48,351 bases of DNA, taken from an uncultured Muribaculaceae bacterium (GTDB lineage Bacteria > Cyanobacteriota > Vampirovibrionia > Gastranaerophilales > Gastranaerophilaceae). A program made the translations under genes and the position numbers. The notes under the pieces are model-generated. The model was not told the origin of the DNA. It made no database searches and saw only the letters and a list, made by a program, of their open reading frames with translations. Location: contig CAZKJV010000001.1 of the NCBI GenBank assembly GCA_964553175.1, forward strand, positions 1 through 48,351, given 5' to 3'. Of the stretch, positions 19,971 to 22,900 are shown in pieces. Position 1 is the first letter of the stretch, and each line of letters begins with the position of its first letter.

Positions 19971-22900
19971 ATGGCACAATTTAATGATAAAACAACAGGT
20001 TTAAACGTATCAAAAAATTCTGATACAATGACAAGTTCGGTAAACGTAACCAAGTTAGACAAAGGGGTAAATAACGTTACTCTTATTGATTATAACGATG
20101 CCATGGTAAAAAAGGGTAGTGAAATAAGCTCTAGCCTTGCAAAAAATGAAGATTATTCAATTTACGGTGCTCCGTCAAAATGGATTTTGGATCAAGAACA
20201 ACAATACAACAACTGTGGTGTTGAGAGTTGTTTAAATATATTAGCTACCGCAGGTTTATATGATATTAAAGACCAAAAAGAAGACGAGGATAAATTTACT
20301 CAATGGGCTATTACAAACAAATTTACTTCTGAAACCGGTGAAGAGCTTACTTATTGTGATGATTATCCGCCAATTGGTGTGTTGAATATAGAAGACGGTG
20401 GAACAGTATATGAGCAAAGAAAAGAGATTTTATCTCATTATGGCATAGAATCAAGTAGTCTTGGTGGTTATTACGAAGAGGGTTACGATTGGTATGTTGA
20501 TCAACTTCAAAATGACCCTGAGATGAAAAATGCATATGACGAATATATTTTAAAAGTTGATGTGTATAATGATCTTATTGATGAGTACAATGAATTAGTT
20601 GCAGGTGGTAAAACAGAAGAAGCTATGGCGATGATTCCGGAGATTTTATTGGCATCTATGGAAGTTTATGCTTATCAAGCTAGTCTTATGAGTCTTGTTG
20701 TTGATTCTTGGAATGTTGAATTTAAGAAAAGTCACTCTGACGCAGAAGTTCTAGCAGAAATCGTTGATACGGTTAAAAGCGGAAAAGGTGTTATTGCGAG
20801 TGGTGATGCAAGATATCTATGGCCGGATTATGAAGCAGAAGAATATGTAGGACATGCAATTACCTTGTTAGGTGTTGTTTGTGATTCCGAAGATAAGGCT
20901 GTTGGGTTCTATATTCAAGATACAGGTAATCCTGCCGTTGGTTTTGCGTTTATTACAACTGAACAGTTGATGAAATTTATCACATCAAACGGTACGGATT
21001 ACTGGAATGGTGTAATTCAAATGAATGTTACCAACGAAGAAATTAAAAGTTGGGCTGACAAATTAAGTGCAATAGGCAATAATGCAAATAATATCTTAAT
21101 CGGTAATGATAACGAAAACGTTTTAAATGGTATGGGCGGAAACGACCAATTAGTAGGTAATGGCGGTAATGATACCCTTGATGGTGGTGACGGAAACGAC
21201 ACTTTAATCGGTGGTGAGGGTGATGACGTCTTAATGGGTGGTGCTGGAAACGATACTTATGTATTCAGTAAAAACTGCGGTAATGATACTGTTGATTTTG
21301 GTGTAAGCGGTTCTGATAAATTAATTTTCACTGACGTTGCTTTTGCTGATTTGAAATACGAAAAAAGTGATATGGATTTGGTTATTACTTATAATGAAAT
21401 TCCAAATGCAGAAGATCCTTTAGTTGTAGATTCTACTGAAACTGTGACAATTAAAGATTATTTTAAAGGAAATAATCATTTCTTGTTAGTTGATGTTCAA
21501 GATAGTTCGGGTGATACAAAAACATTACAATCTTTGATTACAGGTAATATTCCGATTGAATTTAACGAAGATAAAGCAACTTTAGTTTATGGTACTTTCC
21601 TTGATGATGATATAACAGCACCAAGTACAAATGTTTATGACGATACGATTTATGGTGCAGCGGGTAATGATACAATCGTAACTTACGGCGGAAATGATTT
21701 AATTTACGGTGATAGTTATGATGAAGAAAATCCTTTTGTTGAACCGCTTGAGGGTGAAACTTACGACGATTACATTGAAGCTGGTTTAGGTGATGACACA
21801 ATTTATGGTGAAGCAGGTAACAATACAATTGTGTTTAATGCAAATAACACAATTCAAGACGGTTTAACAAATTCAATTGTTGGTGACGGCAATGATGTTG
21901 TTTACTCTGGTCAAGGTACTGACGCTCTTGTATTTAAAGGGGTTAAGTATGAAGATTTAACTATCACTTTTGATGGTGATAATTTAGTTATTAAATATGG
22001 TATGGATTCTGCAAATCCTGATAGCACAGTTACAATTGTTGATTATTTGAAAGATGGAAATCTAACAAGTTCTGTAAAATATATCGTTGATACGGACGGT
22101 ACAAGATATTCAATTGCAGATAATCTTTCGGGCTTTGAAATCAATGGTATTGCTGATGCAAAAAATGAATTAAACGGTTCTACTTTATCAGACACAATTA
22201 CAGGTGCAAATTTTGCTGATGTTATTAGTGCAGGCAAAGGTAATGACATTATTCAAGGTAAAGAGGGGCATGACACTATCGATGGTGGCGACGGTGATGA
22301 TATTATTGATGGTGGCGACGGAAACGATGAATTGTACGGTGGAAATGGTGATGACATAATCACTGGTGGAAAAGGTAACGATAAATTATACGGCGGTGCA
22401 GGTAATAATCAATTTATCTTTTCAAATGATGATGGAAATGATGTTATCTATTCTGGTAATGGAAATGATACAATTATTTTCAAAGAAGAAATAAAAGATA
22501 ATTTAGTTTTTATCAATGACAATCAAGGTAATTTAATTATCAGATATGGTAATAATTCAGAATTAACAATTAAAGATTATTTCACAAATAGTGGTCAATC
22601 TTCTGTAACAAATATCATTGATTCAGCTGGAAAAAATTATTATATTCCTAATTTGTTGAAAGATATAGTTATGGAACCAAATCCGCTATATGACAACGAT
22701 TTAAACGGTTCATTCTTAGGTGAAACAATCAATGGTAGTGATAATCGTGATATAATCCACGGCAATGGCGGAAATGATACTATTAATGGCGGTAAAGGTC
22801 ATGATGAGATTTACGGTGGAAACGGTGATGACGTTTTAGACGGTGGCGACGGAAATGATGAATTGTACGGCGAGGCTGGAAATAACGAAATCTATGGCGG

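Follow-up and report, generated by a model that had tools for sequence, protein, structure and literature searches.

In proteins exported by type I secretion systems (T1SS), an N-terminal catalytic domain followed by repeats-in-toxin (RTX) sequences is the normal layout of an enzyme, as in serralysins, lipases and CyaA. Here we describe a locus with this same order of catalytic domain and RTX tail, beside genes for an ATP-binding cassette (ABC) transporter, a membrane fusion protein (MFP) and an outer-membrane protein (OMP). It lies in a stretch of 48,351 nucleotides (contig CAZKJV010000001.1, assembly GCA_964553175.1, a Gastranaerophilales genome), called the window hereafter, and the RTX protein that it encodes counts 3098 amino acids (aa). 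As serralysins, lipases and CyaA share the layout, a domain ahead of the RTX repeats is no anomaly. The window protein differs from them in that its head is a predicted papain-like thiol enzyme and not a metzincin, lipase or cyclase, and in that its RTX region extends over ~2700 aa in ~14 modules. We consider it probable that residues 1 to ~365 constitute a catalytically intact thiol-hydrolase of clan CA that acts in trans, from a family without annotation whose links to Peptidase_C39_2, C70 and C66 are distant. A 2010 review of RTX proteins names no papain-like class of RTX enzyme (PMC3034196).

Two other groups of giant RTX proteins invite comparison. The adhesins LapA and MpIBP likewise possess a folded, non-repeat N-terminal domain and are exported by T1SS. 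They are released by LapG (BTLCP, family C93), whereas the head of the window protein is itself a conserved enzyme-type domain, also present in non-T1SS toxins. Control by a LapG/LapD pair was rejected: Pfam scans of all open reading frames (ORFs) of at least 100 aa found no Peptidase_C93 or LapD-type domain in the window, in agreement with a first-pass annotation of this DNA made from the letters alone, and residues 1-160 contain no "AA". In MARTX toxins, a cysteine protease is carried inside a giant RTX protein, but this enzyme is internal, caspase-like (clan CD) and activated by inositol hexakisphosphate (InsP6). The analogy with that protease (C80) was also discarded, the window head being papain-like and N-terminal and showing no Peptidase_C80 match.

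Papain-like domains are also known from toxins delivered by other routes. The window head has the papain-like Cys/His/Asp triad in common with Tox-PLC39/PF13529, and it has relatives at the C-terminus of PAAR and type VII secretion system (T7SS) carriers accompanied by small immunity-like genes. In contrast to Tox-PLC39, the head is N-terminal, contains an insert of ~90 aa and an extension of ~60 aa, sits on an RTX/T1SS carrier and has no adjacent immunity gene; the toxin module typical of Tox-PLC39 was thus found in the relatives P0063 (T7SS) and P0071 (PAAR) and not in the window. The carriers given for Tox-PLC39 by Zhang et al. (2012) are the type II (T2SS) and type VI (T6SS) secretion systems and Photorhabdus virulence cassettes (PVC), RTX/T1SS not being among them (PMC3482391). 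Similarly, among the C39-like interbacterial protease toxins Cpe1, EvpQ and TsaP, Cpe1 bears a papain-like Cys/His/Asp toxin domain on T6SS and contact-dependent inhibition (CDI) carriers and has an immunity protein (PMC12136450). From these sequence comparisons, the window head appears to be a warhead related to C39_2/Tox-PLC39 whose position, carrier and lineage are all new and which current family libraries fail to recognise, and not something categorically new.

The gene of the RTX protein (19971..29267, + strand) is the single long ORF of the window and opens with the first ATG past an in-frame stop. Its start, MAQ(F/Y)N, is common to the window protein and to two homologues from other genomes (L001 and L002, MAQYN). 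The protein is acidic (pI 4.05) and matches HemolysinCabind in 46 stretches (E = 1.4e-221) and HCBP_related in 7 more. The first-pass annotation had described a 3098-aa RTX protein with a non-repetitive head; the ORF call gives the same length, and the RTX nonapeptide repeats begin only at about residue 368-396, so that residues 1 to ~365 (19971..21065, +) form a non-repeat head, delimited here by AlphaFold2 (AF2) modelling, Foldseek and alignments. With its Ca-binding nonapeptides and a cognate ABC/MFP/OMP operon, the protein presents what characterizes an RTX substrate of T1SS. The body (21150-29267, +) is made of ~14 modules, each with an RTX block of 5-8 nonapeptides and then a spacer of 115-150 aa, and gives weak BapA_N prefix-like matches and an odd weak match to SIS. 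The C-terminal tail of 148 aa is non-repeat and acidic, and its sequence is conserved in a short relative (P0003).

The catalytic residues proposed by the first-pass annotation, C82, H295 and D317, were found at exactly these positions in the translation. C82, the putative nucleophile, belongs to the motif QQYNNCGVESC (Q77-x4-C82; 20199..20231, +), in which Q77 would provide the oxyanion-hole Gln. H295, in the sequence YVGHAITLLGVV, and D317, in FYIQDTG, complete the triad and stand on adjacent strands according to the model and the alignments (20853..20921, +). In an alignment of 37 family sequences (A3), C82 was invariant, and Q77, G83, S86, H295 and D317 were at least 90% conserved. A second set of 165 relatives aligned by hmmalign, many of which are fragments or partial sequences, gave 156 Cys, 2 Ser and 7 gaps in the column of C82, 150 His, no other residue and 15 gaps in that of H295, 149 Asp, 1 Asn and 15 gaps in that of D317, and 147 Gln, 6 other residues and 12 gaps in that of Q77. 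The gaps probably correspond to the fragments and partial sequences; the four residues were kept in essentially every complete member, across 20-50% identity and three architectures. The conservation of C82 and H295 in orthologues, which had been put forward as a check, thus extends as near-invariance to 165 relatives, far beyond orthologues. Judged from these alignments, such a signature is far beyond chance, and its retention across divergent sequences indicates selection on catalysis.

The fold was modelled with AF2. A run based on five sequences was discarded (pLDDT 58.9) and replaced by a run based on the 37 sequences of A3, which reached a pLDDT of 88.6 and a predicted TM-score (pTM) of 0.88. 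In this model, helix 82-93 starts with C82 (pLDDT block 89-97), H295 begins strand 294-304 and D317 closes the neighbouring strand 310-317. As modelled, this order of Cys helix, His strand and Asp strand is the canonical papain topology. The head therefore displays the attributes of clan CA, namely a Cys at the N-terminus of a helix, the Cys, His and Asp strand order, an upstream Gln and an overall fold match. A papain fold had been suspected from the letters alone, and it is borne out by the conservation of the four residues, the AF2 model and the papain-like matches in Foldseek.

Against PDB, the only Foldseek matches at a probability of 0.95-1.0 were IdeS/Mac-1 (C66), IdeC and the Treponema denticola protein C0362 (T-Mac), which are all cysteine endoproteases with a papain fold, secreted by host-associated bacteria. 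These best solved matches differ from the window protein in being Sec-secreted and without an RTX region, and the window head shows no Pfam Mac-1 match. At the sequence level, the family profile retrieved C0362 and IdeS among PDB sequences, weakly and around the His strand (E ~1e-3 to 7e-3), and the hit of this profile in C66 (IdeS/Mac-1) spanned just ~40 residues around the same strand (E = 0.006). When the profile was built from toxin-type members only, designed WD40 repeat proteins came on top and were rejected as repeat-summed scores, while the C0362 and IdeS matches persisted. All these enzymes, the closest of solved structure, break down immune proteins of the host, i.e., immunoglobulins G and M (IgG, IgM) and complement (PMC11833123). 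Given the low structural scores, immunoglobulin or complement as a substrate class for the window head is speculation, a lead and not evidence.

In BFVD, the best Foldseek match was a siphovirus protein named "Papain-like cysteine protease AvrRpt2" (E = 3e-8, 330 columns, TM 0.43/0.47), followed by a Gordonia phage endolysin. The best overall fold match thus bears the label of AvrRpt2-type enzymes (C70), this phage annotation being unverified, and no sequence-level match of the head to C70 was obtained. AvrRpt2 itself is a type III secretion system (T3SS) effector activated by host cyclophilin. The tie with Peptidase_C39_2 (PF13529, gathering threshold 24 bits) came from the relatives: 22 of the 37 family members match this family (best E = 2.3e-9), some above the cut-off, for example P0054 with 32.1 bits. 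The window protein passes no curated family threshold and is therefore not filed under PF13529. Single relatives also gave weak matches to BtrH_N and to the OspI-like Gln_amidase_like family. C39, C39_2, C70, BtrH_N and C66 have been grouped in one papain-like cluster (PMC10318531). Among the families initially listed for the head, the C39-like guess proved the closest, since relatives match Peptidase_C39_2 and the structural matches are papain-like.

The family is large and almost unnamed. A word-indexed search of 5.8 billion proteins yielded four relatives of residues 1-370, and a scan of representative genomes yielded 11 loci, mostly in metagenome-assembled genomes (MAGs) of gut or rumen Melainabacteria or Gastranaerophilales, plus one in Pirellulaceae. 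An exhaustive profile search among 1.84 billion cluster representatives detected 417 proteins at E <= 1e-3, each representing a cluster at 50% identity. In the sampled members, the source names were only "hypothetical protein" or "calcium-binding protein". Three architectures were observed. In architecture A, which includes the window protein, the domain is N-terminal and followed by RTX repeats in Melainabacteria-type proteins of 800-1500 aa and 3100-3700 aa. In architecture B, it is internal, near the C-terminus of proteobacterial RTX proteins (P0080, P0126, P0137, P0151). In architecture C, it is the C-terminal domain of short non-RTX proteins.

The same catalytic residues are therefore found at N-terminal, internal and C-terminal positions and with three secretion systems, and it follows that the conserved function is catalysis and not the plugging of a T1SS. 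This position independence combined with fixed catalytic residues argues, at the level of sequence, for an enzymatic effector over a retention plug of LapA type. Of the three options first offered for the head, a surface-displayed enzyme or a delivered effector now appears as the best reading, which we infer, while a self-processing retention or release module is weakened by the internal and C-terminal homologues. In the latter scheme, the head would stall in the TolC-like channel and later cut itself to free the fibre, as a substitute for LapG/LapD. It would account for a domain placed at the last-emerging end in a window without LapG/LapD, and the ~60-aa extension unique to the N-terminal RTX subgroup could be its pro-segment or cleavage substrate. 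AvrRpt2 (family C70), whose name the best BFVD match bears, self-processes its N-terminus. Fast-folding N-terminal fusions are reported to stall the HlyA T1SS (PMC4648471). Nevertheless, a function tied to plugging does not agree with identical catalytic residues in internal, C-terminal and T6SS/T7SS homologues, and the homologues of 800-920 aa resemble ordinary enzyme-plus-RTX exoproteins. Also, residues 1-160 lack a di-alanine (TAAG-like) site, and no conserved cleavage motif was identified in the head. We regard cis-acting retention and release as unlikely.

Several members depart from these simple arrangements. The proteobacterial RTX protein P0029 (1170 aa) contains three tandem copies of the domain (216-423, 446-637 and 796-1024), and in P0029 and P0046 the second copy has "SDYS" in the region of the His motif and is possibly degenerate. 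A relative of 342 aa, P0003 (locus L017, 8001-9029), seen on 4 contigs, retains the first ~195 residues of the domain, i.e., the Cys half without His and Asp, joined directly to one RTX repeat and to a C-terminal tail like that of the window protein. It reflects either an assembly that collapsed across the repeats or a deletion that arose in nature. No T1SS genes are present at its locus, and a CHAP-domain gene lies nearby. The contig of the giant RTX homologue L002 (CAVCIX010000012.1; 50% identity) is labelled Anaerovoracaceae (Firmicutes), although the relative closest to it comes from a Melainabacteria MAG; the label may be a binning error.

The genes surrounding architecture C members are those of classical interbacterial-toxin loci, as far as gene content tells. 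In the T7SS locus of P0063, the gene comes after those of an EssC-like FtsK_SpoIIIE ATPase and a WXG100 protein, and an acidic ORF of 149 aa without signal peptide and an LHH-nuclease toxin come next, in this order. The gene of P0071, a PAAR fusion, precedes an ORF of 174 aa and stands in tandem with another PAAR-toxin/ORF pair beside VgrG; among the PAAR-fusion relatives beside VgrG, the downstream ORFs measure 174-177 aa. In the Pirellulaceae member (L011), PAAR and a DUF4123-like gene precede the gene. In the window, the gene downstream of the RTX gene encodes an ArsP_2-type permease, and no homologue of the immunity-like ORFs of the relatives was found. No conserved downstream neighbour was found among the loci of architecture A either. 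Two minus-strand ORFs beside a Herbaspirillum RTX gene were considered as immunity genes and rejected as antisense readings of RTX repeats. The lack of a recognisable immunity gene beside the RTX-linked versions suggests targets outside the producer's own cytoplasm, possibly proteins of the host or of the extracellular medium, or other microbes. In the T7SS and T6SS branches, the putative immunity proteins have no signal peptide and thus point to cytoplasmic protein targets.

This last point also concerns the chemistry of the head. A non-protease enzyme of clan CA, i.e., a peptidoglycan endopeptidase or amidase, a glutamine deamidase, an acyltransferase or a transglutaminase, on or off the RTX scaffold, would fit the Gordonia phage endolysin ranked second in BFVD, a Foldseek match in PDB to the pseudomurein endoisopeptidase PeiR (E = 0.16) and the weak BtrH_N and OspI-like Gln_amidase_like matches of single relatives. 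The reported occurrence of Peptidase_C39_2 domains in phage endolysins goes in the same direction. We hold this to be doubtful, as the signal-less immunity proteins of the T7SS/T6SS relatives indicate cytoplasmic protein targets and not the cell wall, the top solved-structure matches (IdeS, IdeC and C0362) are all endoproteases, and Q, C, H and D are arranged as in classical peptidases.

Directly upstream of the RTX gene and on the same strand, Pfam scans identified the three components of a T1SS (15182-19873): a TolC-like outer-membrane factor of the OEP family (15182..16663, +), an ABC transporter with an N-terminal C39-like domain (16638..18809, +) and an HlyD-type MFP (18818..19873, +). 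Because these genes adjoin the RTX gene, the giant protein is taken as the substrate of this T1SS. The OEP and ABC ORFs overlap by 26 nt (16638-16663), 9 nt separate the ABC stop from the HlyD start, and 98 nt separate HlyD from the RTX gene; this overlap and the short gaps suggest that OMP, ABC, MFP and substrate genes form a single operon.

The best solved match of the transporter's C39-like domain (16638-17138) was the C39-like domain of HlyB (E = 5e-8). Alignments show that the domain is catalytically dead: Thr26 aligns with Tyr9 of HlyB and with position 21 of PCAT1 (Ala in the matched PCAT1 chains), which we take to be the catalytic Cys21 of the native protein, so that the positions of the catalytic Cys and His are taken by a Thr and a Tyr, respectively. 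Lacking both residues, this transporter can be assigned to the HlyB (RTX-toxin) type, which does not process its substrate. The locus consequently holds two papain-like domains, one dead, in the transporter, and one apparently live, in the RTX head. The two were compared by hhalign (A3 against the transporter domain), and the probability of 3% was not significant, although equivalent elements were paired. The head was also considered as a bacteriocin-processing Peptidase C39. This was rejected since it sits on the substrate and not on the transporter, in addition to the 3% obtained by hhalign and to the lack of C39 structures among the PDB matches.

A dead domain beside the head raises the question whether the head has itself kept nothing but the shape of a papain-like enzyme, as a structural cap, adhesion module or passive plug. 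Giant RTX proteins are often adhesins, the body has its weak BapA_N prefix-like and HCBP_related matches, and the transporter domain is an example of a dead papain-like domain. However, the truly dead domain has lost its catalytic residues, while the head family keeps Q, C, H and D in essentially every complete member, and a non-catalytic head seems to us very improbable.

The adjacency to T1SS genes was seen only in the window and at a Herbaspirillum locus (L014). At the latter (2334-11782), two small RTX proteins of 503 and 606 aa are encoded after a T1SS operon composed of an ABC transporter with a C39-type domain, an MFP and an OEP; the one of 503 aa, directly downstream of the operon, is a member of architecture B and carries the papain-like domain.

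Taken together, these data lead us to propose the following mechanism, in which catalytic activity, export order, trans action and target class are inferred. The adjacent HlyB-type T1SS would export the giant protein C-terminus first, and the inactive C39-like domain of the transporter would leave it unprocessed. The RTX modules would fold with extracellular Ca2+, and the enzyme head, emerging last, would fold outside the cell. It would then act in trans on non-self host or microbial proteins, as a cysteine protease or effector that is either secreted or tethered to the surface. The helical hairpin inserted in the head would be an accessory of the subgroup, probably serving substrate recognition or regulation.

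A number of observations weigh against this enzymatic reading. Residues 1-370/400 of the window protein gave nothing meaningful against Pfam, NCBIfam or PDB sequences, and no match to Peptidase_C39_2 even at E <= 1, so that the head appears tied to C39_2 transitively, through its relatives, and at the superfamily level. The structures of C39 peptidases (ComA, LahT, PCAT1 and Cpe1) are absent from the top PDB matches, by sequence or by fold. The PDB matches retrieved by Foldseek have TM-scores of 0.19-0.23 with a root-mean-square deviation (rmsd) of 6-7 Å over ~120 columns and 11-19% identity, these low scores being partly due to the insert. No T1SS genes were found within 10 kb of the 11 related genome loci. 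Also, clan CA comprises amidases, deamidases, acyltransferases and transglutaminases besides proteases. Finally, an N-terminal domain that is Ca-independent might acquire its fold in the cytoplasm already and so halt export, which would favour a tethered or plug role.

The head also contains elements that are restricted to its subgroup. The first-pass annotation had placed ~210 aa of mostly helical insert between the Cys and the His. The insert is in fact only ~90 aa long (residues ~165-255; 20463..20735, +), residues 82-163 and 256-294 being core elements common to homologues without insert. According to the model and the alignments, it forms a long helical hairpin that is specific to the giant-protein subgroup of this lineage, and it is absent from the homologues of 800-920 aa (L005-L010, P0004) and from all toxin-type members. 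Two RTX proteins of ~1400 aa (P0037 and P0041) have at the same site a different insert, ~200 aa long and beta-rich. The existence of two unlike inserts at this junction of the half with the Cys and the half with His and Asp makes it an insertion hot spot for accessory modules. Upstream of the core, a conserved extension of ~60 aa (NVTLLDYNDAIVKxGSEI...IYGAP; residues ~13-65) occurs only in the N-terminal RTX subgroup and is modelled as beta-strands with pLDDT >80.

If the head is active, RTX cysteine proteases would constitute a class of T1SS exoproteins beside RTX metalloproteases and lipases. They would be found in gut-associated Melainabacteria, about whose relations with hosts and neighbours very little is known. 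A single unannotated papain-like family also spans three routes of delivery, i.e., RTX proteins of T1SS, PAAR proteins of T6SS and toxins of T7SS. C82, H295 and D317 offer a handle on the substrates and on the mode of action (free, tethered or in cis) of enzymes at the head of giant RTX proteins. A more singular status of the window protein has in our opinion a small chance of being right: it would be either a T1SS-anchored fibre whose head first plugs the TolC-like channel and afterwards cleaves its own polypeptide or a partner, as a two-step, LapG-independent switch in Melainabacteria for release or activation of the fibre, or the first protease warhead of T6SS/T7SS type on a T1SS RTX carrier, aimed at neighbouring cells or host proteins.

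The rest of the window consists of housekeeping genes, according to Pfam scans. Immediately upstream of the T1SS operon are genes for a NadB-like FAD enzyme and for the quinolinate phosphoribosyltransferase NadC (12595-15061, +). As these NAD biosynthesis genes adjoin the operon, the locus stands amid housekeeping genes and is not an obvious mobile island. About 5 kb upstream of the operon, a gene on the opposite strand (8967-10109, -) encodes an HD_5/HD-domain protein, HD-GYP-like and possibly a cyclic di-GMP (c-di-GMP) phosphodiesterase. A control of the RTX protein by this HD-domain protein is speculative, no LapD-type receptor having been found in the window. With its nearest homologues in Melainabacteria or Gastranaerophilales MAGs, the window probably stems from a gut-associated member of the non-photosynthetic Cyanobacteriota. 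Consistent with such an origin, a gene on the other side of the RTX gene (43896-44837, -) codes for a homologue of LdpA, a cyanobacterial Fe-S protein (LdpA_C, E = 3.4e-19).

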